A stretch of DNA of 51,125 bases from Chloroherpeton thalassium (lineage in GTDB: Bacteria; Bacteroidota; Ignavibacteria; Kapaibacteriales; UBA2268). The notes beneath the pieces are model-generated. The model was not told the origin of the DNA, made no database searches, and saw only the letters and a list, made by a program, of their open reading frames with translations. Where the stretch lies: assembly GCA_020722095.1 (NCBI GenBank), contig DYLM01000006.1, positions 1 to 51,125 on the forward strand, read 5' to 3'. Below are positions 22 through 24,130 of the stretch, piece by piece. The position numbers were made by a program, and so were the translations under genes. Each line of letters starts with the position of its first letter. Position 1 is the first letter of the stretch.

Positions 22-40
22 GACTTATGATGCAGCCTCT
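22..40. repeat. Right terminus of the AGAGGCTGTCTCATAAGTC-family element (rest lies outside the window)
   Basis: gacttatgatgcagcctct matches gacttatgagacagcctct (13788-13806) at 17/19. Confidence 0.7.
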
Positions 41-56
41 GATAAATTTTCTTTTT

Positions 57-5292: not shown

Positions 5293-5463
5293 TTTTTTGT
5301 TTATTGCAATAAAGTGAAAATTTATACAAAAAATTTACTCACAAAGCCAAAATATTGCATAAAATTATCAAATCTATTTATGAATTTTATTTTTTATTTT
5401 TAAAAATTATAATTATGATAAATTTAAAATAAACTCAATTAGCACTAAAACATCTTTGAATTA

Positions 5464-5571
5464 TTATGATGAAATCATATTCAGGATAGTTAAATTAATT
5501 ATTCCCGGTGGTAAAGCAAGTACAATACCCGAAATAATACCTGTTGATATAGTTATAATTGTAGCGTCCAA
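5464..5571 (-). pseudogene. Remnant of a LysE-family translocator (N-terminal 35 codons)
   Basis: Manual translation from TTG: MDATIITISTGIISGIVLALPPGIINLTILNMISS*, resembling the LysE N-terminal G-x-x-x-G...PPG-x-x-N motif; followed by two TAA codons and AT-rich sequence. Confidence 0.5.
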
Positions 5572-5615
5572 AAGCCACTTTTTTTATAATTGTAAATACT
5601 AATATTTAAAATTGT

Positions 5616-6479
5616 TTATTCAATAAATGAAGTTAGCAATAAAATAAGTAGAATAATTGGTGCAGTAAACATAATGCTATCCATTCTATCCAAAATCCCG
5701 CCGTGTGCTGACAATAAATTTGAACTATCCTTTATGTTTGCCTCTCGCTTAAAACTTGATTCAATAAAATCACCAACTTGACTTAAAACCGAAATAGTAA
5801 AAATTAATAAAACTAAAATTATATTATGGAAATACAATCCCACAATTTGCAATCCAAAGTAAAAGGTAAGAGCAGCACCAATCATTCCAGCAATGCCACC
5901 TTCCCAGCTTTTTTGGGGGCTGATTGATGGAGCAATTTTATGTTTTCCAAATCTTTTACCGATAAAATATGCCATTGAATCGCCCACCCAAATAGATGCA
6001 AAATAAATTAGCATAAAATATCCAGCAAGGTTCTCAGGGATTATTCTTGCGTCATTATTTCTGATAAAAAAAAGCGAGACAAATGGAATACTAACAAAAA
6101 ACAAACTACCAGATAAAGTCAATATCGTATTAAGTTTGTTATCTTTGATAAAAAATATTATTAATAACAAAATAATAAAATAGTAAAATGGAATTAAAAA
6201 CGAAGAATAAAGAAATGCAAAACTGAAATCAATTAATTTAGGAAAATCAGTGACAAAAAGTAGCCAAGGAATAATAAATAATGAATTAGCAATTGCAATA
6301 AATTGTGTATTTGTAGTATTTTCATTTGGTTTTGCAAGTTTAGCAAATTCCAAAGTCGCTAAATAATTTAGAATAACAATTGCAAATAACAAATAATAAC
6401 TACCAAGCAAAATTAGTACAACTGCAACAGGTATTCCAAGTAATGCTACAAGCACCCTTTTTTGTAATTCAGAGCTCAT
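5616..6479 (-). CDS. cdsA: Phosphatidate cytidylyltransferase (start probably ATG at 6479)
   Basis: Multi-TM; DSMAYFIG, ISPQKSWEG, GDFIESSFKR..IKDS..L..HGGILDRMDS signature. Confidence 0.95.
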   Translation of the reverse strand: MSSELQKRVLVALLGIPVAVVLILLGSYYLLFAIVILNYLATLEFAKLAKPNENTTNTQFIAIANSLFIIPWLLFVTDFPKLIDFSFAFLYSSFLIPFYYFIILLLIIFFIKDNKLNTILTLSGSLFFVSIPFVSLFFIRNNDARIIPENLAGYFMLIYFASIWVGDSMAYFIGKRFGKHKIAPSISPQKSWEGGIAGMIGAALTFYFGLQIVGLYFHNIILVLLIFTISVLSQVGDFIESSFKREANIKDSSNLLSAHGGILDRMDSIMFTAPIILLILLLTSFIE

Positions 6480-9652: not shown

Positions 9653-10426
9653 ATGAATAATAATTTATACTTTTTATTTTGTGTATTTCTGTTTAATACA
9701 CTTTTGAGCATACAAATTTGCAATGCAGGAAATGCTGACACATTGGATAAAAAGGAGAATTCGCTAACCTTATCGTTTAGCCAAGATCCGGCTTTTGGCT
9801 TTTATCCAAGTGTAAATGGCTATAACCAAATAAATGATACTTGGGCTTTTACTTATTATGGAGTATTTTGGACTCAAGATTTGCTGGGAGGAAATCAAGG
9901 TGGCTTGAATTTGCCCGTTGAGTTAGGCATTGGTATAGACTATTCACTCTTTGATGGCATAGTTAGCATCAATCCCGTGATAGGAGTTGGTCACGGGAAT
10001 TATCAATCTGGCGGCGGACGACCAGTAATTTTTGACGACATTGTCCCAGCGATTTTTGTAATACTATCTTCTAGAAAATCAACTTATGAATTTGGTTCGG
10101 TAAATTGGCTTTCACTTAGGAAGGAAAGCAATACAGAACCGCTAAGAAATCAATTTGAAAATTACTTGATTACCAACCATCAATTGACAAAATTATTCTC
10201 CTATGGACTATACATTGATTTATTCTCCACAAGTGATAAATATCCCAGCGGAAAAATTGAATCAGAAATTTCTGCTTTATGGATTGGACCCAGCTTTAGC
10301 TTCACATCAAATAGTTCTGCTAATCTATGGTTTTCTTTAGGTGCAGATTTAGTTGATTATGCAAAGAAAATAAACAATCCCAAAATCAAAGATTTTTATA
10401 AATTAGTTTTGAAATTTGAAATTTAA
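9653..10426 (+). CDS. Exported hypothetical protein, probable small outer-membrane beta-barrel (DUF6733-like)
   Basis: Signal peptide; QDPAFGFYP and YGVFWT motifs; alternating aromatic/hydrophobic strands, C-terminus YKLVLKFEI. Confidence 0.55.
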   Translation: MNNNLYFLFCVFLFNTLLSIQICNAGNADTLDKKENSLTLSFSQDPAFGFYPSVNGYNQINDTWAFTYYGVFWTQDLLGGNQGGLNLPVELGIGIDYSLFDGIVSINPVIGVGHGNYQSGGGRPVIFDDIVPAIFVILSSRKSTYEFGSVNWLSLRKESNTEPLRNQFENYLITNHQLTKLFSYGLYIDLFSTSDKYPSGKIESEISALWIGPSFSFTSNSSANLWFSLGADLVDYAKKINNPKIKDFYKLVLKFEI

Positions 10427-10610
10427 AAGGGCATTACTTATTCTTATTTTTATATTTCATTATCAATTAGTGGCTGTTTTATAATTAAGATTTTACAGAA
10501 CAATCTCCATCAATCAAGATATGGCTTAAAGTGAATTATATCTAATCAATAACCTTATTTTCATTATTAACCTTATTAGAAATAATTTCCATTTTGACCC
10601 CAAAATTTTA

Positions 10611-10769
10611 TAACCTTATTTAATTTAAAAAGCAGGAAATAAGGTTTTTATGTTTAGTTTGGTTCATTTCTTTTTACTAAGGTTATTAGGTTAAATAAGG
10701 TTTTAAAATGTTTTTATTTAATATTTTTCTTTAATATTTTCCACAAAAAAAACAACTTATGTGATAGCC
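10611..10769. repeat. ~160-bp dispersed element, inverted copy of 43395-43558
   Basis: Aligns by eye with the reverse complement of 43395-43558 (e.g. aggaaataaggtt, gtttggttcattt, tactaaggttattaggtt.aataaggtttt) and ends in acttatgtgatagcc. Confidence 0.85.
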
Positions 10770-10861
10770 AATAAGAAATATTAATCATTGATTTATCATA
10801 ATCTTTGCTTTATTTTTACTATTTTTGTAATTAATTCAATATTTATTTTAGTGAATCGTAT

Positions 10862-10885
10862 AAATACCACAACAAGGTAGTATAT
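10862..10885. promoter_or_regulatory. Putative Rrf2 operator upstream of the Rrf2 gene
   Basis: aaataccac-aacaag-gtagtatat, 21/24 identical to the perfect palindrome at 11331-11354; ends 2 bp before the ATG. Confidence 0.7.
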
Positions 10886-10887
10886 TA

Positions 10888-11316
10888 ATGAATTTATCAA
10901 ACACAGCAGAATACGCAATTAGAATTTTAACATTTATGGCGGTCAAAAAACTCGATATTTATACTGCTAAATACCTTATTGAACAGCTTAATATCTCGGA
11001 TAAGTACCTAAGAAGAATAATGACAAACCTTACAAAAGTCGGCTTAATTCGTAGTATTCAGGGGCGTGATGGTGGCTATGTTTTTAATGATAACCCCGAA
11101 AACATTAATTTAATGCAGATAATTGATGCAGTTGATGATATGGACAAATATATGGGTTGTGTTTTGGGATTTAAAGAATGTTCAGATTCAAATCCTTGCG
11201 TTTTACATTCGCAATGGGCAATAATAAGAAATCAAATATTCGATTTATTTAAAAAGACAAATTTATTAGAAGTGTCCGAAGATATGTTTTTAAAATTAGA
11301 GAAAATTAAATTTTAA
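10888..11316 (+). CDS. Rrf2-family transcriptional regulator with three Cys (NsrR-like role likely)
   Basis: EYAIRIL, YLRRIM..L...GLI.S.QGRDGGY winged HTH; CVLGFKECSDSNPCVLH Fe-S ligand set. Confidence 0.92.
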   Translation: MNLSNTAEYAIRILTFMAVKKLDIYTAKYLIEQLNISDKYLRRIMTNLTKVGLIRSIQGRDGGYVFNDNPENINLMQIIDAVDDMDKYMGCVLGFKECSDSNPCVLHSQWAIIRNQIFDLFKKTNLLEVSEDMFLKLEKIKF

Positions 11317-11330
11317 ATTTTTTTACAATA

Positions 11331-11354
11331 AAATACTACAACAAAGTAGTATTT
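11331..11354. promoter_or_regulatory. Putative Rrf2 operator upstream of qNOR
   Basis: Perfect 9-6-9 palindrome aaatactac-aacaaa-gtagtattt, 24 bp before the ATG; aaggag RBS follows. Confidence 0.75.
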
Positions 11355-11378
11355 AAATTAAATAAAAAAGGAGTATTT

Positions 11379-13598
11379 ATGAACAAAAGTTTACTCGACA
11401 AATTTATGAGCCATAAAGGCTTATACACAAGTTTCTGGATAATTGCATTGTTTATGGTGACGATGCTAATTTATTACACAGCAAACTTACAGAAAGAAGT
11501 TCCTCCAATTCCTAAAACTGTAACTTCAGTTAGCGGAGAAGTACTTTACACTTACGATGACGTAGTAGCAGGAAAAGGTTATTTCCAACAATTCGACCTT
11601 ATGGATTGGGGTACATTGCTTGGAATGGGAGCATATATGGGACCTGACTTTTCTACTGACTTTATGCACCACAGAACAGAATTTTTGTATGATTTTTATG
11701 CAAATGAATTATATGGAAAGACAAATAATGGTTTAACAAAAGTTGAACGCGCTGCAGTTAAAGAAAGAGTTAAGCAAGACATTAAGCAACAAACTAAATT
11801 ACTCGAAGAAACTACTACTTATACTGATGCATCTGCAGTTGCTTACCACAGAAATGTAGAGTACTTGGTTAAATTATTGGTAGAAGGCGACCCAAGTCGT
11901 GCTTTCCCAGGTGGAGTTATCCACCCAGATGAAGCTGAAAAGATCGCTTCATTTGTGGATTGGTCTCAATTAGTGGCTTCCTCACTTAGACCGGGAACAA
12001 ATAGAACTTGGTCGAATAACTGGCCCCCAGAACCTCTTTTAGACCAAGATGTTAGGTTTAATTCTCATAAAATTTCACTTTGGGAGTTTTTAATCCTTTG
12101 GACATTAACAATTTTTGTTATATTCCTTTCTTATGAATATTTATTAAAGAAAGATGACCCAAGTGAACTTCAACCTGCCATTAAAATTACAAGCTTATTC
12201 AAATCGCAAGCTAAATTACTGAAATATATTCCAATTGTAGCTGCACTATTTGTTGTTCAATTGATTATTGGTGGATATTTGGCTCACCTTTACACAGAAC
12301 CAACAAAAGATTTCTTGCTTTCGCAGAACTTATTACCATTTAACGTTTTAAGATCATTGCACACTCAAATCGCAATTTTATGGGTTGCAGTGGGTTGGTT
12401 AGTTGGTGGTTTATTGATTGCTCCTTGGGTAGCTAATAAAGACCACAAATACCCATGGCTTGTGGATGTATTGTGGGCAGCATTAGTTGTTGTAGCAGTT
12501 GGTAGTGTTATTGGTTTATATATGGGAGCAACTGGACAATTACGTGAAACTTGGTTCTGGTTGGGTAACGAAGGACGTGAATTAGTTAATTTAGGTAGAA
12601 TTTGGGATATTGGACTTGTCATCGGGCTTGTTTTCTGGTTCTTACTGATTATTTCCTTAATCAGAAAAGCTGCAACAAATAACCCAATTGTATCCACAAT
12701 TATTTGGTCTGCTTTTGCTATTGCAACTTTATACATTGCTGGTATGATGCCAATTCATAAAATTATGCCAAACTTTACAGTTGATGATTACTATCGTTGG
12801 TGGGTAATTCACTTATGGGTAGAATTAACATTCGAACTATTTGCAGCTGGCGTGATTGCATTCTTTACAGTATCGTTAGGATTAATTTCGCAAAAAACTG
12901 CAGTAAAAGTTATGCTTTTCGAATTATTCTTAATTATGTTGAGCGGAACTCTTGGAGTAGGGCACCATTACTGGTGGCAAGGTTTAGATGAATATTGGAT
13001 TGCTATTGGTGGAATTTTCTCTGCATTAGAACCACTTCCATTGGCATTAATGATTGTAGAAGCATGGAAAAACCATCGAGAAAAAGTACATAGTGGCGAC
13101 AATAACGAATTTGGTGTGCCATTTATGTGGATTGCAGGTTCTGCAGCTTTGAATTGGATAGGTGCAGGTTTCTTTGGTATGTTAATCAACACACCAACAA
13201 TTAGCTATTATTCACACGGAACATATTTGATTATGCCTCACGGACACGTTGCATTGTTAGGTGCATTTGGCTATATCTCAATTGCTTTCTTGTATATGAC
13301 TTCACGGGCAAACTCATTAGCTAAAGGCTTAGAATGGAACGCGAAACTTAGTAAGTATGGCTTTTGGTTATTAACAATTGGTGCTTTGTTATTTACAATT
13401 CCAACATATATTATTGGTATTGAACAAACAAGAATCGCACACGACTTGGGATATTATTACACTCGTTTAAGAGGTGCAGTTCAACCAATGTCGGGCTGGA
13501 TGTGGTTTAGAATATTACCTGACACATTGATGATTCTTGGTGGTATAGTTGTTCTTTACGATTTAGTACAAAAAACATTCTTAGCTAAAAAGAAATAA
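11379..13598 (+). CDS. Quinol-dependent nitric oxide reductase (qNOR), heme-copper oxidase superfamily
   Basis: PPIP..V, G.GAY.GPD, NNWP.EP, RSLH, WWVIHLWVE, GVGHHYWW, SALEPLP, HGHVALLG, RILPD; single 739-aa subunit without CxxCH. Confidence 0.88.
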   Translation: MNKSLLDKFMSHKGLYTSFWIIALFMVTMLIYYTANLQKEVPPIPKTVTSVSGEVLYTYDDVVAGKGYFQQFDLMDWGTLLGMGAYMGPDFSTDFMHHRTEFLYDFYANELYGKTNNGLTKVERAAVKERVKQDIKQQTKLLEETTTYTDASAVAYHRNVEYLVKLLVEGDPSRAFPGGVIHPDEAEKIASFVDWSQLVASSLRPGTNRTWSNNWPPEPLLDQDVRFNSHKISLWEFLILWTLTIFVIFLSYEYLLKKDDPSELQPAIKITSLFKSQAKLLKYIPIVAALFVVQLIIGGYLAHLYTEPTKDFLLSQNLLPFNVLRSLHTQIAILWVAVGWLVGGLLIAPWVANKDHKYPWLVDVLWAALVVVAVGSVIGLYMGATGQLRETWFWLGNEGRELVNLGRIWDIGLVIGLVFWFLLIISLIRKAATNNPIVSTIIWSAFAIATLYIAGMMPIHKIMPNFTVDDYYRWWVIHLWVELTFELFAAGVIAFFTVSLGLISQKTAVKVMLFELFLIMLSGTLGVGHHYWWQGLDEYWIAIGGIFSALEPLPLALMIVEAWKNHREKVHSGDNNEFGVPFMWIAGSAALNWIGAGFFGMLINTPTISYYSHGTYLIMPHGHVALLGAFGYISIAFLYMTSRANSLAKGLEWNAKLSKYGFWLLTIGALLFTIPTYIIGIEQTRIAHDLGYYYTRLRGAVQPMSGWMWFRILPDTLMILGGIVVLYDLVQKTFLAKKK

Positions 13599-13673
13599 TG
13601 TTTGAATAAAATTTATAAATTGCAGATTAGCAATTAAAATAAATTTTCGTTCTTAAACTTATATCAATTTTGG

Positions 13674-13806
13674 AGAGGCTGTCTCATAAGTCAGTTTTGC
13701 TGTCATTCCCACGAAAGTGGGAATCCATAAATCCTCTATAGTAGTTGATTCCCGTTTGCACGGGAATGACAATTTTGAAATATTTTGGACTTATGAGACA
13801 GCCTCT
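13674..13806. mobile_element. 133-bp MITE/REP-like element: 19-bp terminal inverted repeats enclosing two inverted dRS3-like palindromes
   Basis: agaggctgtctcataagtc (13674-13692) / gacttatgagacagcctct (13788-13806) perfect IR; inner gtcattcccacgaaagtgggaatc (13702-13725) and gattcccgtttgcacgggaatgac (13747-13770). Confidence 0.8.
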
Positions 13807-13916
13807 TCAAATTATTTTAGAATTAATAAAGTCTATAACAAATAAAATTTTCAATATTCAAATTTTGTTTTTAGATTTTATTAATCCTATAAATAAAAAA
13901 TAAAAGAGATTTTTTT

Positions 13917-15815
13917 ATGAAAAATATATATAAAGTAAACGAAGAATGTGTAGCTTGTAGAGCATGCGTAGAAGTCGCTCCCAATAATTTTGACATTGCT
14001 GATAATGGATTGGCTTTTGTTTACAAGCAACCAGAAAATGCCCAAGAAATCGCAAATTCAAACGAAGCAATGGAAGTATGTCCAGTTAGTGCAATTAGCA
14101 AAAAAGTTGTTGATAATTTATTAGAAAATATCAACTCTCCTATTTTTGCAAATTCAAATATCAAAGAAACCTTGGATAAACATCCAGAACTTAAGTCAGT
14201 TTTGGTAAATTATTCAGATAAGTTCAAAAAATTACTAAATCCAGTAATGTATAATACAGTTGCAAAATTTGCAACTTTCAATGATGCCGCAAGAGTTACT
14301 AAACTTTCGATTTGTGAAATTTTACATACTTTGAATGATTATTTGGGAACTACACAGGAATTATTACGCATCGCTCCTGATTGTATCCGTAGCAATCAAA
14401 TTGAAATACTTGTTGGCGAAACAATTAGTTGGGCAGAATCTCACGAAAGATATATTTACAATATCAACACAATGTCCGAAATTATACAAAAAATAACCGA
14501 ATTAAAGCCTCAAGAAAACATTGTATTAATTTCCACAGAATCGCCAGACGAAATAATCAACATCTGCAAAGGCTTAAATTTCAAATTCAATATTGAAAAT
14601 AATAGAGAATATCGAGTTAGTATATTCAATCCAAATAACGATAATGTATCTGATGATTGGCAAAGCAGAATGGAAGATTTTGAAGTATTAGACGTTCGGA
14701 CAATGAAAACAGATCCTTTCGACATCATAATTCAAAAGGCTTACCAATTGCAAGAAGGACAAGGCTTTAAACTAATTCAACGCTTTGAGCCAATCCCGAT
14801 TATGAATATGCTATCAGAAATGGGCTATGAATACGTATCAAAGAAAGTTGCTCAAAATGAATATCACGTTTATTTCCATAAAATTCCAGTCATTGAAGAT
14901 TCAATTGAGATATCAAACAAAACTGAACTTGTTATACAATCGGCAACTCCCGTTGCCTATCCTGTTATTATGCGATTACTTCAATCAGAAATTATTCGGA
15001 AATCAGTTAAAATAAAAGAATTAAAAGTTTGGGAAGAAACCGAAAAACACTTAGCTTGGATAAACAATGGAAAAGCAGATATTAGTTTTTCGGCATTAAT
15101 TACATCTGTAAAATTACAAAAAATCGACATAAAAATTCCTGCAATTTTTGTTTGGGATAATTTTGTTTTACTAACACGATATCCAATAAAAAGTTTAGAG
15201 GATATAAAAGGCAAAGTCATTCATACTCCTTTGTTCGAAGAAGCTCCACCTACAAAAATAACAAAGTATTTGATTAAAGCATTAGGAATGAATCCCGATG
15301 AATTTACATTTTCATACGGGAAACCTTTTGGAAGACCTGATGAAATTTTCAATGAATTTGTCACTGGTAAAGCAGATACAGTTATTCTTAGGGAGCCCGA
15401 AGCAAGTTATGCAATTAAATCACTTCGCGACAGAAAACTTCCTTTTTCCGCAATAAATTACAATGAGATTTGGAACGAAGTAAATCCTGGCTTCGGTAGT
15501 TTCCCAAATGCAGGTATTGTATTCAAAGGTGAATTTGTTCGTCAGAATCCCGAATTAGCAAGAGTATTTTTAGATGAATTAAAGAAAGCAATAGGATGGG
15601 TGAATACTAATAAAGATGAGTCTGCAAATCTTTCCTTTGATATGATGCGTCAAACCCCAGATAAAGTTCGCTTATTCTTGGATAGAGTTAATTTTACATA
15701 TTCCGAGGGAGCAGAATTAGTCGAAAAAGTGAAATCTTACTTTGAGGTTCTAACAGCACAAAATATTATTGATACAAAAATTGAAGATTCATTTTATAAT
15801 ATTTTTGAGTTATAA
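13917..15815 (+). CDS. Multidomain protein: monocluster ferredoxin + DUF1858-like + two DUF2249-like domains + NMT1/SsuA-type solute-binding domain
   Basis: CVACRAC...CPVSAI; IKETLDKHPELKSVL....KFKKLLNP; LDVRTMKTDPF..I..KAYQLQEGQGFKLIQRFEPIP; C-terminal GKADISF, GKADTVILREP, FVRQNPELARVFLDELKKAIGW; no signal peptide. Confidence 0.75.
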   Translation: MKNIYKVNEECVACRACVEVAPNNFDIADNGLAFVYKQPENAQEIANSNEAMEVCPVSAISKKVVDNLLENINSPIFANSNIKETLDKHPELKSVLVNYSDKFKKLLNPVMYNTVAKFATFNDAARVTKLSICEILHTLNDYLGTTQELLRIAPDCIRSNQIEILVGETISWAESHERYIYNINTMSEIIQKITELKPQENIVLISTESPDEIINICKGLNFKFNIENNREYRVSIFNPNNDNVSDDWQSRMEDFEVLDVRTMKTDPFDIIIQKAYQLQEGQGFKLIQRFEPIPIMNMLSEMGYEYVSKKVAQNEYHVYFHKIPVIEDSIEISNKTELVIQSATPVAYPVIMRLLQSEIIRKSVKIKELKVWEETEKHLAWINNGKADISFSALITSVKLQKIDIKIPAIFVWDNFVLLTRYPIKSLEDIKGKVIHTPLFEEAPPTKITKYLIKALGMNPDEFTFSYGKPFGRPDEIFNEFVTGKADTVILREPEASYAIKSLRDRKLPFSAINYNEIWNEVNPGFGSFPNAGIVFKGEFVRQNPELARVFLDELKKAIGWVNTNKDESANLSFDMMRQTPDKVRLFLDRVNFTYSEGAELVEKVKSYFEVLTAQNIIDTKIEDSFYNIFEL

Positions 15816-15829
15816 ACAGATAATTACCT

Positions 15830-17344
15830 ATGTTAAAATTCCTTCGCAAATACCATAAATGGTTAAGTATTATTATTTCTTTTTTTGTAATTTTATTTGT
15901 AATTTCTGGAATAGTATTAAATCACCGTCAAACATTCTCATTTTGGGATATTAACCGCAATTTGCTCCCAAAAGATTATCGTTATAAAAATTGGAACAAT
16001 GCTTCGGTTAAATCCACTCTTAAATTATCTAATGATAGCATATTAATTTATGGAAATATTGGAATTTGGCTTACTGATTCAACCTTTTCCAAGTTTATTG
16101 ATTTCAATAAAGGTTTCAGAAATGGAATTGACAATAGAAAAATTTGTACAATGACTTTAACGAGCAAAAACCGTGTATTGGCAGGGACATTCTTTGGATT
16201 GTTTGAATTTATTCGCTATAAGCAAAAATGGACGAAAATCGACCTACCTACCAAAGAAAGCCGTGTAGTTGATTTGCTTAATATACAAGATACTACTTAT
16301 GTGATGACTCGATCTTTCTTGTTCCGAACAACTGACTTTGTGAAATTTGAAAAAGTTAATATCCCACCTCCAGTCAATTATGATAATAAAATTGGATTAT
16401 TCAAAACATTCTGGGTTATTCATAGCGGCGAAATTTATGGTTTGCCGGGTAAATTGATAGTTGATGCAGCAGGCTTGATATTTGCATTTCTAACGATAAC
16501 GGGAATAATTCTATTTATCAATAAATACTTAATCAAAAAGAAGGATTTAGTAGAAGAGAAAAAAAAGAAAATCGTAAAATCTTCCAAATGGCATTTAAAA
16601 TGGCATAATAAAATTGGCTGGATTACAGTTGCTTTGCTTATTATCAATACTTTTACGGGAATGTTCCTGCGTCCTCCGTTCTTGATTACCATTGCAAATT
16701 CGCGAGTAAATAAAATTCCATTTACCGAACTTGCTACCTCAAATCCATATTTTGATGCGTTAAGGCAAATTTCTTATGATGAAGGAAATAATGTCTTTCT
16801 TCTGGCAACAAATGACGGAATATTTTATTCTGATGATAATTTCCAAACTCCACTAAAAACATTTGCAAATCAGCCACCTATCAGTGTGATGGGAATAAAT
16901 GTGTTCAAACGAATCACAACCAATTTGTATTTGGTTGGCTCATTCGAAGGTTTGTATTTGTGGAATTATACAACAGGCGAAGTTTATGATTATATCCGCA
17001 ACGAAGTAGCAGTTAAGAAAACCGATAATGGCAGACCGATTGGGGAGTTTATGATAGGTGGTTTTACAGATGATTTTTTAAATCAAGAGATTGCTTTCGA
17101 GTATAATCAAGGCGCAGGAAATCTTACTTCTGACATACCTTTCCCAGAAATGCCAAAGGAAATAATTGAGAAATCGCCAATGTCAATGTGGAATTTTGCA
17201 TTAGAAGTGCATACAGGAAGAATATTCGAACCATTAATTGGTGATTTCTACATTTTAGTAGTACCAATCGTAGGAATATTTGTTTTATTCATTTTGATTT
17301 CAGGCTTTGTTGTGTGGTTTGTGCAATTCAGAAGAAAGCATTAG
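15830..17344 (+). CDS. PepSY-associated TM helix domain protein (putative iron-regulated membrane reductase)
   Basis: RKYHKWLS...SGIVLNH, IHSGEIYG, KWHNKIG...TGMFL, EVHTGRIF; four TM helices with two large periplasmic domains. Confidence 0.82.
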   Translation: MLKFLRKYHKWLSIIISFFVILFVISGIVLNHRQTFSFWDINRNLLPKDYRYKNWNNASVKSTLKLSNDSILIYGNIGIWLTDSTFSKFIDFNKGFRNGIDNRKICTMTLTSKNRVLAGTFFGLFEFIRYKQKWTKIDLPTKESRVVDLLNIQDTTYVMTRSFLFRTTDFVKFEKVNIPPPVNYDNKIGLFKTFWVIHSGEIYGLPGKLIVDAAGLIFAFLTITGIILFINKYLIKKKDLVEEKKKKIVKSSKWHLKWHNKIGWITVALLIINTFTGMFLRPPFLITIANSRVNKIPFTELATSNPYFDALRQISYDEGNNVFLLATNDGIFYSDDNFQTPLKTFANQPPISVMGINVFKRITTNLYLVGSFEGLYLWNYTTGEVYDYIRNEVAVKKTDNGRPIGEFMIGGFTDDFLNQEIAFEYNQGAGNLTSDIPFPEMPKEIIEKSPMSMWNFALEVHTGRIFEPLIGDFYILVVPIVGIFVLFILISGFVVWFVQFRRKH

Positions 17345-19068
17345 GAAGATTCGTACATTTTCTTTATAATCTCAAAAAGTTTCTTGTTTTTTGATCCATA
17401 TTTTGCAATTGCTCGGAAAACGATGGAGCCTTCCTGATACATTTTTGCATATATTTTATGTTGTAATAACTTTTGAAATTCATCAAATTTGACTACAACT
17501 TTAGGATTATTAATGGGCAATGAAATGCTTTGAATATTCTTTTCTATTTGATAAGCAGCTTTTTCTGAACTTTCTTGGTCATTTGATATTTGCGTTCTCT
17601 CTCCTTCATTTTTTATGTTTGTTTTGAGAAATTTAAGTCTATTTTTTGTTCTTGTTACTGCCACATAAAGAATGTTTATCTCTTCGTTAATTTTAGCAAA
17701 ATTTACATTTTTTCTCTTATGAATGTCTTTTACATCGCTTTCTTTTATGAAATCATTTGCAAGTTCAACTGAATCATATTCCATACCTTTTGCCTTATGA
17801 AGTGTAGTAAATATCATAGAAGCATTATTTTTATGAGAAATGTCGGGAATACTTTTCTTTTTTAAAAAAGCAAGGATTTTATTTAAATGTTTTCCATATT
17901 TCTTAACCAAATCTGTAAAATTTGATAAATTTGTGTCGCTTGCCTTTTTATTATAATTTGCCAACTCACCGAAAGTACCAAAATTTCTTATAAAATTAGA
18001 TTTTATCAAATATCTTTTATCTGCATAAAGATTTTGAATATCATTAAGCAGGCTGTTCTCTTCCAGAAAGAAAGCATTACTATTGCCACCTTCAAAGAAA
18101 ATTCTAGTATCTTTTGAACTTTTTCTGGCAAATTCTAATGCATTATCAATCATTTCTAGATTTGTTCTTGCTATCAAAGCTTTTACTTTTGTAGATTTTG
18201 AATTTCCACTTCCAATTACAGATATTTTGTAATCGTTATTTATATACTTCTTCCAATTGATAATTCGTACCGCCAAATCCGCAATATCCTGATTAAACCT
18301 AAAACTTTGAGTTAAATAAAATTGTTGGAAATCAATATTCTGGAGCATATTTACTGCATATCTCCAACTATAAATTTGTTGATTAACATCTCCAGTAATT
18401 ATTTTGGTTGCTTTTTGATTATTGACAATATCCCAAATTACAGGCGATGCGTCCTGACCTTCGTCAAAACAAATAAAGTCATAATTTAGTTTTGGTTTAT
18501 GTAATTGATATTGTTTTAAATAAAAATCGTGAGTTATTTGAATTCCACCATCTTTCATTAATTGAAAAAATAAATCTGCTAAGTAATAAATATAATCGTA
18601 ATATTCATTTACAAAATTTAACGACTCATTTTCAAATATTATCTTTATTAGGTCTAAATCTTCAATCTTTTCTACATTGCTATTATAAAAATAATCTATT
18701 AGCTTTAATGTATAATGAGCAATTAGATATTTATCAATAACTTTATTTTTATTGCTTTCAATATTTAACAATTTTGGTAATTCATAAGGAGAATATGACT
18801 TTAATGTAGTATTGTAAATATTCTGACTATGATATGCTAACGAATGAGCAGTATGAACATCAACATTAGTTATGCCCTGCTTAATTAATTTGGCTTTGGC
18901 TTCTTCCTTTACAGATTTATTGTAAGCTAAATATAGTATTTTGCTTGATTTTGAGTGAGTTTTAATATATTCTAAGATAGTTGTTGTTTTTCCAGAACCA
19001 GCAACAGCATTAACTTTAATATTCCCTGAGGAATTTATGATATGCAGTTGCTCGTCTGTTAAGTTCAT
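17341..19068 (-). CDS. UvrD/Rep-like SF1 helicase (start probably ATG at 19068)
   Basis: LTDEQ, AVAGSGKTT, DEGQD, GD..QQIY.WR.A, LTQSFRF, TLHKAKGMEYD, LYVAVTR. Confidence 0.93.
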   Translation of the reverse strand: MNLTDEQLHIINSSGNIKVNAVAGSGKTTTILEYIKTHSKSSKILYLAYNKSVKEEAKAKLIKQGITNVDVHTAHSLAYHSQNIYNTTLKSYSPYELPKLLNIESNKNKVIDKYLIAHYTLKLIDYFYNSNVEKIEDLDLIKIIFENESLNFVNEYYDYIYYLADLFFQLMKDGGIQITHDFYLKQYQLHKPKLNYDFICFDEGQDASPVIWDIVNNQKATKIITGDVNQQIYSWRYAVNMLQNIDFQQFYLTQSFRFNQDIADLAVRIINWKKYINNDYKISVIGSGNSKSTKVKALIARTNLEMIDNALEFARKSSKDTRIFFEGGNSNAFFLEENSLLNDIQNLYADKRYLIKSNFIRNFGTFGELANYNKKASDTNLSNFTDLVKKYGKHLNKILAFLKKKSIPDISHKNNASMIFTTLHKAKGMEYDSVELANDFIKESDVKDIHKRKNVNFAKINEEINILYVAVTRTKNRLKFLKTNIKNEGERTQISNDQESSEKAAYQIEKNIQSISLPINNPKVVVKFDEFQKLLQHKIYAKMYQEGSIVFRAIAKYGSKNKKLFEIIKKMYESS

Positions 19069-19114
19069 CGAATTATTTAAATTTGAAAAATTCAAAATTA
19101 TAAATAATTTCTCT

Positions 19115-22100
19115 TTATTCCACTATTATCATACTTTTTGTTTGATTAATATGATTTGTCCTTAAAATGTAATAATACATTCCTGTAGGAAGCCCTTCGT
19201 TGACCAATTTAATTGAATAATTGCCAATTTTAAATGGCTTATTAATGAAAATACTTTTTACTAACACCCCACTAATTGAATAAATTTCAAGTGTAGCATT
19301 TGTTTTTTCGGATATAGAGAATTTTATCTCAGTTTCATAATTCCAAGGATTTGGATTGTTCTGTCCTAAACTGGGCATCACTCCAGTATATTGCAATGTA
19401 GATAATCCACATTTTCCATTTGAAATTAAATATGTCGAATCCGATAGCGGAACCAAATCCAAAAACATCACCGAATCTGTTGAAAATTCATCAATTAGTA
19501 ATGAAATTTTACTGAAATTTGTATCAGGAATTGTTGATAGAAAATCAATTTCAAATAATTTGCCTTTTGCTAATTGTTTGGAATTGTCAAACTTAATACT
19601 TATACTTCCCGGTGTGTAAGTGTTGGTAAATTTAGCATCAACAAAATTACGCACATCCAACATTTCCAAAGCAAAAGCATTATAATAAAGATTCATTGAA
19701 AACGACAAATCTTCTAACCATATTGTTTGCCCTTGCAAAGTAGTGTTAATATCCTTATCCAAATAAATCGGTATTGTAATTGTATCTCCTAATTGAGTAA
19801 TGAGCGAGTCGGGTATTGTGAAAGAATTTTTCGTATCAAATCCAATTTCATATCTCGGTGCATATCCAATACCAGTAAGTAAGTTGGAATCAAGAACCTG
19901 ACAAGGACTTGCCGCAATCGTTTGAATAAATTGATTGAAAGTAGCAGATTTTCGTGGACAGAATTTAAGAGTAACTGATAATGTATCGCCAACCATAAGT
20001 GTATCTGTTAGATTTGGCACAGAACTAACATAGAATAATTCATTATTCAAATTAAGCAAAGAAAACAAACTTAATGGCACATCGCCAGTATTATGCAAAA
20101 ATACTGTTCGCTCTACGCAATCAAGTACTTTGACTGAATCAAAATCAGCCGAGGAAACAGCAGTGAGTTCAGGCTTCTGTATTATCACACGAGCAAAATC
20201 GTTTTCAGCAATGATATGGTACATTATTATTTCTTCTGTATCAAAATGTATGCTATCTAAAGTAATTACCAAAGAATCTCTATCATTTATTCTTGGTTTG
20301 AAATATGCAGTAAAAATTGGTCTTAGGGAATCCACATAGCAAGCATTTTTAAGTAAAAATTCACTCCCACCAAATTCGGAATAATTATGCTTCAAAAATG
20401 GTGTATAAGACTTACATTGTGGGATTAAATAATCACTTTCCGAATACAAATACTCTAATTTTGTAGTATCATAGCCAATTCTGCAATCAATATCCACAAT
20501 ATCAGCTGGAATTGCTCTACTTGTATAAATAGGAATGGCAAGTGTATCGCAAGGCACAATGCGGAATGTATCTAATGCACTTGTATTATTGAATGTAAAG
20601 CTCAAACCATAAGCCGGTGCAAAGCCCGAACCCGACAAAATAAGAGTTGTATCAATAAAATTACAAGGGTCAGAAATGGATATTTTCAATTTATTTTCGT
20701 AATATCTTACTGCTCTTGGCTTGAATTCCAATCGTAAAGTGAGAATATTATTGGTATCAACAAAGAGTGGTAAGTTGCCACCCAATGAATCATAAGCATA
20801 AAAAACTCTTTCATTCGGTTCAAAAGTGATGTCAGTAATTGTCACTTTTGCTTGTTGAGGATTGAACTCAAGTGCTGGAATACGGAGATGAATAAATTGA
20901 GGTGTTGAAACAGTATCCACCCGTGTTGGCGGAAATATAATTCTCTTTGCGTCATATTCATAAACCAATGTTTGTTTGCCTGCTAAATAAGAAGTGTAAG
21001 TATTTTCCCAGCCGCTTCCTTTTGCTTGAAGAAATAATCTGGCATCATTATCAATTATCGTAGCATCCATTTCATTTCTTGGGCAGAACTTTATATACAA
21101 AGTATCTGTGCTTCTTGGGGGAATTTTATAAGGCACAATACCATCTGGTGAGTAATGAGAATACCAAGAATAAAATTCAGGTTTGGGATTTGTAACATTG
21201 ATTGAATCAATCCAAACGCTATCAATATCCATATCAAAATAAAATGAATTATTGATTAGTGGAATTGACCGAACTTGGCAATCGCAAGGACGAACAAATC
21301 CGTAAGTAATAACTTTTAAAGGCACATCAAGAGGAACGATAATGCCATTTCCTGTCAAATATGATGATACACTGATTGGGCAAGGTGCTAATGAATTTAC
21401 AGTAAAATATCCCTTATACTCTTTGCTTTCAGTTGGTTTGAATGCAATTATTACTTGAATTGTGTCCTTTGGTTTTAACTTTATATTATTAAAATCAGTT
21501 GGATAAATTAATTCAAAGCCAGGAGAAATTGTATAATTATTTATTATAATGTCGTAATTAGAAATATTTTCTAAATGCAAAGTATCATAGAGAACGCCTC
21601 CAACTTCAATTGTTTCATAAGCAATTTCTGATGTTAAATATAATTTAGGAGTAATTGATGTTCCATAAATCTTTGCTGACCATAACTCGCCATCTTCTGT
21701 TTGAAACTCTAAATATGCCCTATCGGCACGGTCAGTTGTATTATCTGCGGGAGTGTATCTAAAACTAAATTGGGCTCGATGATTTGGTTCTAATGTGATT
21801 GAATTTGGCAATGAAGAAGGAGAAATAAGAGTAAATTTATTATTTGCTTGATTTAAAATAAAATTTGAATAAGTCTGTGGAACTGTAGTAATGTTTTCAA
21901 TTTCTAAACTACCATCTTTTGACTGACAACTAATAACATCATTTATTTCAAGAACTTCAGGCATAAATTGCACTCTTTGCACAATTGCTTTGCCTTTAAC
22001 ATAAATGCAATATGATTGCAGACAAGAATTTTCGTACAAACACACTTCGTCAAAAAATGTACCTGATGTAGTTGGCCGGAAAGTTAGCGGGAATGGCTTG

Positions 22101-24130
22101 GTTGCATTGCTTGCAATGGATAAATTCTTTGTTCCCGTCAAGTAAAATGGTTCACCTTTTCTTAAGTATAATGATGCAGTAAGTGATTGGTCGCTTGCAT
22201 TCTTAATATCTACATTCAAAGTTGCCTCTTGCCCAACAATCACAGTACCAAAATCAACTGTATCTACCACAAATTTTATGTCTGCCTCGTAAGAACGTGC
22301 TTTAATATAAATTGGATAATGAATAGTACAATTTTCGGATTTGGCAATAATTACAATGGAATCGTTGAACACACCTTTTTGCTTTGGGAAAAAACGGAAA
22401 TAACTTGGATTATAGCCTGTTTCGGGTTCTAAAATTATCGGAAATTTGAATGATTTTCCAAAGAAATTTGGCGGGATTGTAATGCTCTCAATTGTAATAT
22501 TCTTGTTAGACTTGTTCATCCATTCATACTCAACTGATTCATCGGGCATATCCACACAAGACTGACCAAAATTGAATGAATCCAATCTTTCTTCGCTTCC
22601 TCTTTTCCAAATTACGAGAACTTCATTTACTTTACCATAAATTGGAATTTTCACATCTCCAGCACATTTATCAGTTGATAAAATACGAAGAGTATCATAA
22701 TATGCCATTGTTGTATCACGTGAGTAAAATCTTATTTTTACATCTAAACATTCATTTGGCATTAGCACTTTTGGCAAAGTTGGATAAGTCAATTGAAATA
22801 CTTCGGGCATTTTTAGATTAATACTATTAACAGTGATAGAATTTTTTGAAGTATTGCAAATCTTTAAAGTAGAATCAATGAAAGGTTTTTCTATACATCT
22901 TGCTTTAAGTGAGTCAAACTTCATTTGTAGCGATGACATACTTAATTCTGACTTCCGAGTGATAGAAACTGGCACATTTAAGTGATAATAACCACAACTA
23001 TTATTATTTCTAAATAATAACCTCGTTTTTATTGTTCCAATAAAATCAAGTTTTGCTTTCACTCTAATGGTAACGGGTTGTCCTGGTTGTAAAGGTGTAT
23101 ATCTCCAAGACAATAGTGTTTCTTCCTTTGTCCCATTTAAAAAATAAAATATTGAATTTTTTGCTAAATATCCATCATAATCTAACATCGCAGTTGATGT
23201 TGGACAAAGAGCAGTATCAACAACAGTAAATTCGTATATTTTTTCGGTATCGCAATAAACAGTATCGGTAATAGCAGTGGGCATAACCACAACTTTTCCA
23301 TAATCTTTGCGGTCGGAAGTTACAGTTGATAAGCCAGCCCGCAAAAAACCACTATTATTGTTTGGAGTTGCATCACATAATTTATATATATAACTTGAAT
23401 CATTGCAGCGATAATAAGCATATAAATCCTTTTCTGTTCCTGCCAAAGCCCTATCCTTGTAGCAAATTAAATCATTTTGATTTAAAACTTTGCCCCAAAT
23501 GCGGATTTCATCCATATAACCTTTGTAAGTTCGATTAAGATTTGGGTCGTTGGACAAGGCATTTGTGCTTCCTAATTGCAGTGACAAATCAGGATTATTA
23601 ATTTGCTTGAATGCGTAGTAAGGATATCTGGAATTTCGTGCTGAATCGACAGGATAGGAATTTACATAAATATAAATCCATCCTGTCGAACCATCAGCAA
23701 CAAATGCAAAATGATTCCAATTATCATAATAATTACTAAATGGAATTGATAAACGAGTGTCATCAAGGTTCCCAAGAGTTTCATTTTGACCATTGATATG
23801 GAAAATAAGCGAGTCGTCTGGCGAGATATACACAACCCATGAGTCGTATTTTTCGGTTGCAGGTCCCCACATTCCACCAATATATTGCAGTTTCCCTGAC
23901 TGTCTCTCTGGCTTTAACCACATTTCCAATGTCATATTTTGATTGACTTTTTGACTTAAATTTGTGTTTAAAATATCAATATACTGCGCACCTCTACCTT
24001 GAGTAAGGGTAAATTTAAGCGTTTTGCCAACGCAAGTTCTAACGGTATCGCAAGGTTGATAAGCCTTGGTGGAATTGTAAAACGCAATCATTAAAATTGC
24101 TAATATCAATAGTCTTCTAATTAAAATCAT
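19115..24130 (-). CDS. Large T9SS-secreted protein: LamG-like domain, tandem ASH/choice-of-anchor-D-like Ig domains, cohesin-like domains, T9SS CTD
   Basis: Signal peptide; TLEMWLKP..WNHFAFV..YKGYMDEIRIW (LamG); repeated DFG....N....L.P....V.F.P; IPIY...GYDTTKLEY; LGQNNPNPWN.ET.I.F.I...EIYSISG..V...GMYYY.L....KSMIIVE. Confidence 0.85.
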   Translation of the reverse strand: MILIRRLLILAILMIAFYNSTKAYQPCDTVRTCVGKTLKFTLTQGRGAQYIDILNTNLSQKVNQNMTLEMWLKPERQSGKLQYIGGMWGPATEKYDSWVVYISPDDSLIFHINGQNETLGNLDDTRLSIPFSNYYDNWNHFAFVADGSTGWIYIYVNSYPVDSARNSRYPYYAFKQINNPDLSLQLGSTNALSNDPNLNRTYKGYMDEIRIWGKVLNQNDLICYKDRALAGTEKDLYAYYRCNDSSYIYKLCDATPNNNSGFLRAGLSTVTSDRKDYGKVVVMPTAITDTVYCDTEKIYEFTVVDTALCPTSTAMLDYDGYLAKNSIFYFLNGTKEETLLSWRYTPLQPGQPVTIRVKAKLDFIGTIKTRLLFRNNNSCGYYHLNVPVSITRKSELSMSSLQMKFDSLKARCIEKPFIDSTLKICNTSKNSITVNSINLKMPEVFQLTYPTLPKVLMPNECLDVKIRFYSRDTTMAYYDTLRILSTDKCAGDVKIPIYGKVNEVLVIWKRGSEERLDSFNFGQSCVDMPDESVEYEWMNKSNKNITIESITIPPNFFGKSFKFPIILEPETGYNPSYFRFFPKQKGVFNDSIVIIAKSENCTIHYPIYIKARSYEADIKFVVDTVDFGTVIVGQEATLNVDIKNASDQSLTASLYLRKGEPFYLTGTKNLSIASNATKPFPLTFRPTTSGTFFDEVCLYENSCLQSYCIYVKGKAIVQRVQFMPEVLEINDVISCQSKDGSLEIENITTVPQTYSNFILNQANNKFTLISPSSLPNSITLEPNHRAQFSFRYTPADNTTDRADRAYLEFQTEDGELWSAKIYGTSITPKLYLTSEIAYETIEVGGVLYDTLHLENISNYDIIINNYTISPGFELIYPTDFNNIKLKPKDTIQVIIAFKPTESKEYKGYFTVNSLAPCPISVSSYLTGNGIIVPLDVPLKVITYGFVRPCDCQVRSIPLINNSFYFDMDIDSVWIDSINVTNPKPEFYSWYSHYSPDGIVPYKIPPRSTDTLYIKFCPRNEMDATIIDNDARLFLQAKGSGWENTYTSYLAGKQTLVYEYDAKRIIFPPTRVDTVSTPQFIHLRIPALEFNPQQAKVTITDITFEPNERVFYAYDSLGGNLPLFVDTNNILTLRLEFKPRAVRYYENKLKISISDPCNFIDTTLILSGSGFAPAYGLSFTFNNTSALDTFRIVPCDTLAIPIYTSRAIPADIVDIDCRIGYDTTKLEYLYSESDYLIPQCKSYTPFLKHNYSEFGGSEFLLKNACYVDSLRPIFTAYFKPRINDRDSLVITLDSIHFDTEEIIMYHIIAENDFARVIIQKPELTAVSSADFDSVKVLDCVERTVFLHNTGDVPLSLFSLLNLNNELFYVSSVPNLTDTLMVGDTLSVTLKFCPRKSATFNQFIQTIAASPCQVLDSNLLTGIGYAPRYEIGFDTKNSFTIPDSLITQLGDTITIPIYLDKDINTTLQGQTIWLEDLSFSMNLYYNAFALEMLDVRNFVDAKFTNTYTPGSISIKFDNSKQLAKGKLFEIDFLSTIPDTNFSKISLLIDEFSTDSVMFLDLVPLSDSTYLISNGKCGLSTLQYTGVMPSLGQNNPNPWNYETEIKFSISEKTNATLEIYSISGVLVKSIFINKPFKIGNYSIKLVNEGLPTGMYYYILRTNHINQTKSMIIVE

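Follow-up and report, generated by a model that had tools for sequence, protein, structure and literature searches.

Rrf2-controlled defence against nitric oxide (NO) is a known kind of system, and so are the membrane reductases of the PepSY_TM family. The regulons of the Rrf2-type regulator NsrR typically hold hmp, ytfE, hcp and norB. Among the PepSY_TM reductases, FoxB carries two bis-histidine b-haems, one per membrane face, and the available part of the preprint describing it names no cytoplasmic electron donor (bioRxiv 10.1101/2021.01.28.428567). Another PepSY_TM protein, CrpH, is reported to support the function of a haem-copper oxidase and to keep histidines of this kind (PMC13038864). 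The domains DUF1858 and DUF2249 have been linked to nitrogen-oxide metabolism in several organisms: DrpB of Thermus thermophilus binds the membrane and has been proposed as a nitrate sensor (PMC6282519), DUF2249 genes of a haloarchaeon are induced in denitrification (PMC11218638), and a DUF1858 gene is found within the NnrR regulon of Bradyrhizobium (PMC6710368). Here we describe a locus that brings these elements together. It lies in a stretch of 51,125 nucleotides (the window) from contig DYLM01000006.1 of the Chloroherpeton thalassium assembly GCA_020722095.1, and consists of genes for an Rrf2-family regulator, a quinol-dependent nitric oxide reductase (qNOR), an uncharacterised ferredoxin/DUF1858/DUF2249/PBP (periplasmic-binding-protein-like) protein of 632 amino acids (aa), named FUS here, and a PepSY_TM-family membrane protein.

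Comparison of this locus with its relatives leads to two conclusions that we regard as well supported at the sequence level: PepSY_TM and FUS appear to be partners, and a palindromic putative Rrf2 operator appears to tie qNOR, FUS and PepSY_TM into one regulon. On balance, if narrowly, it is probable that an Fe-S Rrf2 repressor governs a mobile stress module here, in which qNOR would be accompanied by a FUS/PepSY_TM electron-transfer unit for the repair of iron or Fe-S centres.

The initial annotation, made from the letters alone, had proposed four co-oriented genes with the last two 14 bp apart. Open reading frames (ORFs) with matching Pfam domains were found on the plus strand at exactly the coordinates given below, and the gap between the FUS and PepSY_TM genes measures 14 nt (15816-15829). 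Each of rrf2, qNOR, FUS and PepSY_TM is present as a single copy in the genome (2.46 Mb, 94.65% complete). The features of the locus are as follows.

10864..10883, no strand: operator 1, ATACCACAACAAGGTAGTAT, with 1 mismatch to ATACTAC-N6-GTAGTAT and followed 4 nt later by the rrf2 ATG
10888..11316, plus strand: Rrf2-family regulator, 142 aa (Pfam Rrf2, PF02082, E 6.8e-29)
11333..11352, no strand: operator 2, ATACTACAACAAAGTAGTAT, a perfect palindrome 26 nt before the qNOR ATG
11379..13598, plus strand: qNOR, quinol-dependent nitric oxide reductase, 739 aa (Pfam COX1 and NorB_cytochrome_c-like)
13669..13811, no strand: miniature inverted-repeat transposable element (MITE), 143 nt with nested inverted repeats, between qNOR and FUS
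13917..15815, plus strand: FUS, uncharacterised, predicted cytoplasmic multidomain protein, 632 aa (Pfam and homologue search)
13935..14099, plus strand: FUS ferredoxin domain, residues 7-61 (Fer4_13, E 1.2e-14)
14151..14321, plus strand: FUS DUF1858 domain, residues 79-135 (Pfam 50.5 bits, above the cut-off)
14463..14657, plus strand: FUS middle region, residues ~183-247, degenerate and DUF2249-like (region-specific hidden Markov model, HMM)
14685..14882, plus strand: FUS DUF2249 domain, residues 257-322 (Pfam E 2.9e-8, 33.9 bits, cut-off 29.5)
14907..15812, plus strand: FUS C-terminal PBP-like domain of NMT1/SsuA type, very strongly conserved (NMT1, PF09084, 32.1 bits, cut-off 20.5)
15830..17344, plus strand: PepSY_TM-family membrane protein, 504 aa (PF03929, E 1.5e-19)

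The FUS loci compared with the window come from different species' genomes and are the best 80 of 136 confirmed; many lie on short contigs, and all neighbourhood counts are lower bounds. PepSY_TM adjoins FUS in 13 of the 80 loci, being fused to it in six, upstream in five, downstream as in the window in one, and fragmentary in one. The fused form (PepSY_TM::FUS) is a single ORF of 1143-1157 aa in L014, L017, L029, L032, L033 and L039, and the two of these ORFs that were scanned with Pfam contain PepSY_TM, Fer4_13, DUF1858, DUF2249 and NMT1. A search spanning the junction gave at least 11 full-length fused clusters (P0121-P0127, P0129-P0132) that are 60-100% identical, besides partial ones. This number of full-length clusters indicates that PepSY_TM::FUS is a stable gene. 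No publication joining PepSY_TM, ferredoxin and fusion was found in our literature search.

The PepSY_TM protein has four hydrophobic segments (residues 12-30, 205-230, 262-280 and 477-495) and two large periplasmic loops, and is rich in lysine and arginine in its N-tail, its C-tail and the loop between transmembrane (TM) segments 2 and 3 (12 in 31 residues). By the positive-inside rule both termini are predicted to be cytoplasmic, which would place the ferredoxin of the fused form in the cytoplasm, about 25-35 residues past TM4. H32, H198, H259 and H461 are invariant in 25 orthologous sequences and H9 is nearly so. In the predicted topology H9 and H259 face the cytoplasm, and H32, H198 and H461 the periplasm. 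The protein shares PF03929, four TM helices and large periplasmic loops with FoxB (7ABW) and CrpH, and its conserved histidines at both faces may correspond to theirs; the direct match to 7ABW is weak (E 0.009, over one TM). It differs from both in being paired with, or fused to, a cytoplasmic ferredoxin-containing protein, and in contexts that involve NO, nrf and haem uptake and not siderophore or copper operons. Orthologues located apart from FUS have varied neighbours, including nrfHA in L103 and L105 and hmuY with a TonB-dependent receptor in L094 and L101.

The palindrome ATACTAC-N6-GTAGTAT was derived in this analysis as the sequence common to the regions upstream of the module rrf2 genes. 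The whole genome of the window holds only two sites with at most one mismatch, one before rrf2 and one before qNOR. The 786,989 nt of the 80 FUS loci contain sixteen sites with up to two mismatches; for 15 of these the gene that follows within 150 nt is rrf2, qNOR, PepSY_TM or FUS, and the remaining one falls within an unrelated L025 gene. Sites precede rrf2 in L014, L017, L032, L033 and L109, which includes operons ending with PepSY_TM::FUS, and qNOR in L030, L060, L067, L078 and L109. FUS itself is directly preceded by a site in L067 and, at a distance of 25 nt, by a perfect palindrome in L060; in the divergent arrangements L074, L078 and L080 the palindrome lies 17-23 nt before PepSY_TM.

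The regulator encoded in the window carries C91, C98, C104 and H107. In the module Rrf2 proteins C91, C104 and H107 are present in 12 out of 12 and C98 in 10 out of 12. Its score against TIGR00738 (102.7 bits, cut-off 73.3) makes it a member of the Rrf2 superfamily, and it falls below the equivalog cut-offs for NsrR (31.3 against 182), IscR (66.9 against 207.55) and suf_reg (77.2 against 110.65). The predicted regulon resembles those of NsrR/IscR type in having a small three-cysteine Rrf2 protein, an inverted-repeat operator at promoters, autoregulation and an NO-detoxifying enzyme as a target. It differs in the regulator, which has Cys3-His ligands and stays under the NsrR, IscR and SufR cut-offs, and in holding FUS and PepSY_TM instead of RIC, Hcp or Hmp.

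The initial annotation had made its case depend on whether the FUS and PepSY_TM genes are linked to nor or rrf2 elsewhere. Such linkage was found: qNOR and Rrf2 each lie within five genes of FUS in 10 of the 80 loci, at least one of PepSY_TM, qNOR and Rrf2 is near FUS in 15, and a further case was seen in a genome of the window's class (G015). The gene orders vary, being colinear, divergent (L074, L078, L080) or with FUS first (L060, L067), and L032 and L033 hold Rrf2 and PepSY_TM::FUS with no qNOR nearby. In the FUS tree (77 rows; four loci with FUS below 560 aa were left out) the module context occurs in at least two well-supported clades, and the window's FUS and that of its closest relative L011 share a long branch nested among Bacteroidota sequences of one clade. 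An even sample of 301 genomes from the class of the window contained FUS in only two, the window's own included, and none of the 11 other genomes of its family had it; PepSY_TM matches were found in six of the 301, the best non-self match being 43% identical. The second FUS genome of the class, G015, encodes Rrf2, qNOR and FUS in a row; its rrf2 gene has a one-mismatch site in front of it, and a perfect operator separates it from qNOR. Module qNORs at other loci are 66-82% identical to that of the window and, taken together with the placement in the FUS tree and the class distribution, this speaks for the module having spread horizontally. FUS loci were also seen in Thermoplasmatota, Clostridia, Spirochaetota and Campylobacterota bins (L047, L054, L088 and others); several of them fall inside Bacteroidota clades, which suggests mis-binning or gene transfer.

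Based on these observations the following mechanism is proposed. An Fe-S Rrf2 repressor would bind ATACTAC-N6-GTAGTAT upstream of rrf2 and of qNOR, and NO or Fe-S damage would destroy its cluster and lift the repression. qNOR would then reduce NO to N2O. FUS, as a cytoplasmic [4Fe-4S] protein, would pair with PepSY_TM, a putative FoxB-type four-helix di-haem membrane reductase, and where the two proteins are separate they would have to dock. Electrons would pass from the FUS cluster to the haem at the cytoplasmic face, then to the haem at the periplasmic face and finally to an oxidised metal in the periplasm, most likely Fe3+. The reduced metal would resupply iron for rebuilding Fe-S or FeB/haem centres damaged by NO. 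The outward path is favoured because it agrees with reductases of the FoxB/CrpH type and with the neighbourhoods that concern iron, haem and Fe-S, and the step from a low-potential cluster to b-haems would be downhill.

Several observations weigh against this reading. As many as 65 of the 80 FUS loci have no module gene nearby, although many of their contigs are short, and of the 26 loci flanked by 3 kb or more on each side six have the module context, nine an ORP-like context (defined below) and 11 neither. FUS adjoins qNOR without PepSY_TM in L060 and L067, and also in G015, where no PepSY_TM gene was found beside FUS or elsewhere in the genome. Of the 67 FUS genomes in which no PepSY_TM gene adjoins FUS, 50 were searched for unlinked partners, the 17 with loci on short contigs being left out. 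With the window's protein as query a PepSY_TM match was found elsewhere in 20 of the 50 genomes and none in 30, and module-type qNOR was present in 15, adjacent to FUS in two, and without a match in 35. Nine of these genomes have both partners, 11 only PepSY_TM, six only qNOR and 24 neither; co-occurrence at the level of genomes was rejected as evidence, being too weak and non-independent. As to the regulator, NsrR is the weakest of the equivalog scores, the Cys3-His pattern is IscR-like, and ligands and NCBIfam scores taken together look more like IscR or SufR than NsrR. Five block-shuffled genomes gave 0-3 sites each with at most one mismatch, so the case for the operator rests on its position and conservation. 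The whole-genome site scan found no operator directly before FUS in the window, where FUS is also separated from qNOR by the MITE, whose predicted hairpin has a folding energy of -66 kcal/mol. Co-transcription across this spacer is thus presumed, and co-regulation of FUS and PepSY_TM in the window would need read-through of the MITE hairpin or an unseen promoter. Furthermore, unlike FoxB and CrpH, the PepSY_TM protein has no PepSY (PF03413) domain even at E<=1, and its periplasmic loop 1 bears a weak likeness to the propeller in 3VA6, a hybrid sensor kinase from Bacteroides (E 0.0026). Finally, the six fused loci form one clade on the FUS tree (SH-aLRT 96), so that the fusion was probably a single event. 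The interpretation of the locus as an NO module in the initial annotation thus stands as far as recurrent linkage, fusion and the shared operator carry it, and is weakened by the majority of unlinked FUS loci and by the window's own FUS gene.

A more far-reaching version of the electron-transfer reading can be offered tentatively, and we think it rather doubtful as a whole. PepSY_TM::FUS would be an undescribed transmembrane conduit with the ferredoxin as a built-in entry to the FoxB-type part, and the DUF1858-DUF2249-DUF2249-PBP body would act as a novel enzyme for Fe-S/iron repair, standing in for RIC/YtfE in an NO regulon that Rrf2 controls in Bacteroidota and in the organisms with which they exchange genes. 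DUF1858 is a putative relative of the ScdA_N domain. FUS resembles RIC/YtfE (ScdA_N and hemerythrin) in its association with an NO reductase in a putatively Fe-S-sensing Rrf2 regulon, but contains no match to ScdA_N (PF04405, searched in the whole genome) or to hemerythrin, and may be a functional analogue only. The window's genome, at 94.65% completeness, gave no ScdA_N/RIC (PF04405) match and no Hcp match, which also counts in favour of the mechanism proposed above.

A different context of FUS was revealed in 13 of the 80 loci (L020, L038, L049, L054, L055, L064, L069, L071, L072, L076, L077, L086 and L090), where it lies near an ORP-like gene set, defined as at least two of MinD-Fer4 ATPases, Nitro_FeMo-Co proteins, DUF5320, DUF59 and NifU. 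Frequent companions of this set are a cupin, a pyridine-nucleotide disulfide oxidoreductase, an ArsP_2 permease and cytochrome bd. The contents of these clusters include DUF5320, a small ORF, Nitro_FeMo-Co, two MinD-Fer4 ATPases, Nitro_FeMo-Co, FUS, a cupin, DUF59 and the ArsP_2 permease. Orp3/Orp4 and Orp8 have been described with such domains, and FUS is no described ORP component in the available part of that report (PMC6345978). This suggests that FUS is an unrecognised accessory of these anaerobe-specific ORP-like clusters. The likeness extends to DUF59/SufT factors: FUS adjoins Orp3/4-like ATPases, Nitro_FeMo-Co proteins, DUF5320, DUF59 and NifU, DUF59 proteins lie within four genes of it in seven loci, and one relative (P0192, 619 aa) consists of DUF1858, DUF2249, NMT1 and a C-terminal DUF59/FeS_assembly_P domain. 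Four DUF59 proteins with C-terminal DUF1858 domains have been listed (PMC4982691). A protein of about 390 aa with hemerythrin and PAS_10 domains was also seen beside FUS in four of the 80 loci (L033, L044, L050 and L078), two of which are module loci; in L033 its gene (5169-6356) sits between rrf2 and PepSY_TM::FUS.

These contexts allow FUS to be read as a general maturation or repair factor for Fe-S or metal clusters in anaerobes, an accessory of ORP-like and DUF59/NifU systems that would have no NO-specific role, with FUS-PepSY_TM as a separate transcription unit that merely lies beside Rrf2-qNOR. Loci of the ORP-like kind are roughly as common as those of the NO kind, both among the 80 (13 against 15) and among the 26 that are well flanked (nine against six), and the DUF59 fusion, the many FUS genomes without a qNOR or PepSY_TM match, and the missing operator and inserted MITE before the window's FUS gene all fit such a factor. 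We nevertheless think this explanation unlikely, as the operator stands directly before FUS in L060 and L067 and before PepSY_TM-FUS in L074, L078 and L080, FUS is located downstream in rrf2-led operons (L014, L017, L032, L033 and L109), and within the class of the window the only two genomes with FUS also have module-type qNOR, the two genes being adjacent in each. No palindrome site with up to two mismatches was found in any of the ORP-context loci among the 80. A dependence of FUS on ORP genes was rejected, since the genome of the window has none of the ORP-like families at E<1e-6, a point that likewise speaks against the general factor. For the electron-transfer reading, the suggestion in the initial annotation that NO detoxification is coupled to iron supply or Fe-S repair gains indirect support from the ORP-like loci, the DUF59 fusion and the nrfHA and hmuY neighbours of PepSY_TM, whereas the chemistry is something that we infer.

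The domain composition of FUS bears on a second alternative. A word-indexed search in which 7,999 candidates were scored gave 538 related proteins at E<=1e-3 among them. The best 120 are about 630 aa long and, one at 93% aside, 60-65% identical over their full length; across the FUS proteins listed the identity is given as 57-65% over about 630 residues. Their source names include 'ferredoxin', 'DUF1858 domain-containing' and 'NitT/TauT substrate-binding protein'. An exhaustive search of representative sequences with FUS yielded 53 clusters at E<=1e-30, 365 at <=1e-10 and 2,324 at <=1e-3, and the family has a member in the cultured isolate Haliovirga abyssi (P0154). In 60 aligned sequences C11, C14, C17 and C55-P56, the motif of a single [4Fe-4S] cluster, are invariant, as are C133, C156, H378 and much of the PBP-like domain, and H137 is nearly so; C133 and H137 sit at the end of the DUF1858 domain. 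Among solved structures the FUS profile matched the single-cluster ferredoxin I of Desulfovibrio africanus (1DAX, E 4.5e-9), the DUF1858 protein 2FI0 (E 1.2e-4) and, weakly, SsuA (3UIF, 0.02). Matches of FUS and PepSY_TM to ESM Atlas features were confined to their own families and generic NMT1 clusters.

The middle region of FUS was resolved with its own HMM, which matched DrpB-like DUF2249 domains in a set of 149 proteins with domain E-values down to 2e-6 (P0272), and matched P0223 at residues 129-183, where Pfam places DUF2249 at 123-185. Variants of FUS without the ferredoxin (P0183 and P0185) have two Pfam DUF2249 stretches each. Together these results indicate that FUS is made up of a ferredoxin, DUF1858, two DUF2249-type domains and the PBP-like domain. 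A direct hhalign comparison of the middle region with the protein's own DUF2249 was weak (P 0.0044, probability 7.8%) and is superseded by the HMM test. Judged by these sequence models FUS has a DrpB-like core of DUF1858 followed by two DUF2249 domains, and it shares this order and the association with nitrogen-oxide genes with Thermus thermophilus DrpB (PMC6282519). It differs from DrpB in its additional N-terminal [4Fe-4S] ferredoxin and PBP-like domain of about 300 aa, in the degeneration of its first DUF2249, and in its partner and regulator. The Pfam NMT1 match of the PBP-like domain covers residues 374-567, and stand-alone relatives of this domain, of about 325 aa, exist. A role of FUS as an exported substrate-binding protein of a transporter was rejected, as the score against the SsuA family (TIGR01728) is 31 bits with a cut-off of 163.5, there is no N-terminal signal, and the PBP-like domain lies behind the ferredoxin domain. 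The module also holds no ABC permease or ATPase genes that would suit an ABC substrate-binding protein.

FUS might instead, in the manner of DrpB, sense nitrogen oxides or serve as an accessory in the regulation that responds to them. Its PBP-like domain would then bind nitrate, nitrite or a related anion, and the protein, tethered by PepSY_TM, would modulate qNOR expression or activity and not carry electrons for metal reduction. Such a role would suit the core shared with the membrane-binding DrpB, a proposed nitrate sensor (PMC6282519), the induction of DUF2249 genes in haloarchaeal denitrification (PMC11218638), the DUF1858 gene in the Bradyrhizobium NnrR regulon (PMC6710368), and the NMT1 match with the NitT/TauT source names. 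It would leave unexplained why FUS has an invariant four-cysteine ferredoxin and is fused to a putative di-haem membrane protein, both of which point to electron transfer, and FUS has no output domain. The NrtA-type model NMT1_2 is matched only weakly in L014 (E 0.055) and not at all in the window's FUS, and nothing evident connects anion sensing with the ORP, DUF59 and NifU neighbourhoods. We therefore hold a sensor to be distinctly improbable.

The qNOR of the window contains COX1 (PF00115, E 1.7e-55, residues 281-713) and a NorC-like NorB_cytochrome_c-like domain (PF22085, E 7.4e-44, residues 45-217). The N-terminal domain has no cysteine and hence no haem c motif. The protein aligns with the qNOR of Geobacillus stearothermophilus (3AYF) over residues 24-734 (E 4.8e-132), and the two share the fused NorC-like domain without a haem c motif. 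The motifs HLWVE, GHHYW and HGH are in register. We take these motifs to be the ligands of haem b, haem b3 and FeB. Homologues are present in 80 of the 301 class genomes, and only that of G015 is close (83%); the other 78 genomes have homologues only 29-35% identical to the window's, from which the module qNOR is distinct as a separate subtype. The description of this qNOR as divergent therefore holds within its class, but not with respect to the Geobacillus enzyme, of which it is a full-length relative. A last alternative would make FUS, jointly with PepSY_TM in those loci that have both, a maturation factor devoted to this subtype of qNOR, delivering or reducing iron for FeB or the haems in analogy to the copper proposal for CrpH (PMC13038864). 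We consider it the least likely of all, for although FUS adjoins qNOR without PepSY_TM in G015, L060 and L067 and a distinct qNOR subtype travels with FUS in the window's class, 35 of 50 FUS genomes have no qNOR match, L032 and L033 combine Rrf2 and PepSY_TM::FUS away from any qNOR, and 13 of the 80 loci are ORP-like and without qNOR.

The element between qNOR and FUS had been annotated as a MITE, and this proved right: it has terminal inverted repeats and many dispersed copies, and is missing from the same spacer in L011. Its outer arms are 24 nt long and 96% complementary. At least 31 further matches of at least 109 nt and 77-95% identity, among 63 listed, occur on many contigs of the 2.46-Mb genome, a lower bound on the copy number since 40 of 179 candidates were scored. 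The family is thus high-copy in this small genome, with many half-copies besides the long matches, and a match to the terminal repeat with three mismatches lies at the start of the window (22-41). No Rfam family matches the element, which as RNA has a predicted fold of -66.2 kcal/mol (z -8.9). In L011, whose FUS is 93% identical, the flanks of the spacer are conserved and an unrelated 33-nt palindrome takes the place of the MITE between them (~1650-1690). Palindromic elements may insert here preferentially, or a hairpin may have been there earlier. No clear target-site duplication is visible at the borders of the MITE, and the L011 site is not a clean empty one.

Upstream of the module the window encodes a DUF6733 protein (9653-10426, plus strand, E 1.1e-36). 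Downstream, a UvrD-like helicase ORF (17341-19095, minus strand) is convergent with the PepSY_TM gene, whose last 4 nt it shares, and is followed by an ORF of 1671 aa (19115-24130, minus strand). Neither the DUF6733 protein nor the 1671-aa ORF recurs beside the module at other loci. An Rfam scan of positions 10000-18000 gave only sub-threshold chance matches (SmY, SNORD51). Counts of sigma-70 promoters (34 against 36.7 in shuffles, in a scan that does not cover Bacteroidota-type promoters) and of terminators (3 against 3.2) were not above those of shuffled sequence.

In the literature searched we found no family in which a ferredoxin is joined, as in FUS, to DrpB-type domains and a cytoplasmic PBP fold, no pairing or fusion of FUS with PepSY_TM, and no defined palindrome that ties FUS and PepSY_TM genes to qNOR across several lineages. 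The FUS-PepSY_TM pair offers a concrete candidate for the cytoplasmic electron supply to reductases of this type. The family and its putative regulon thereby offer handles on two questions, namely what roles DUF1858 and DUF2249 have in nitrogen-oxide metabolism, and how anaerobes restore their iron centres after damage by NO.

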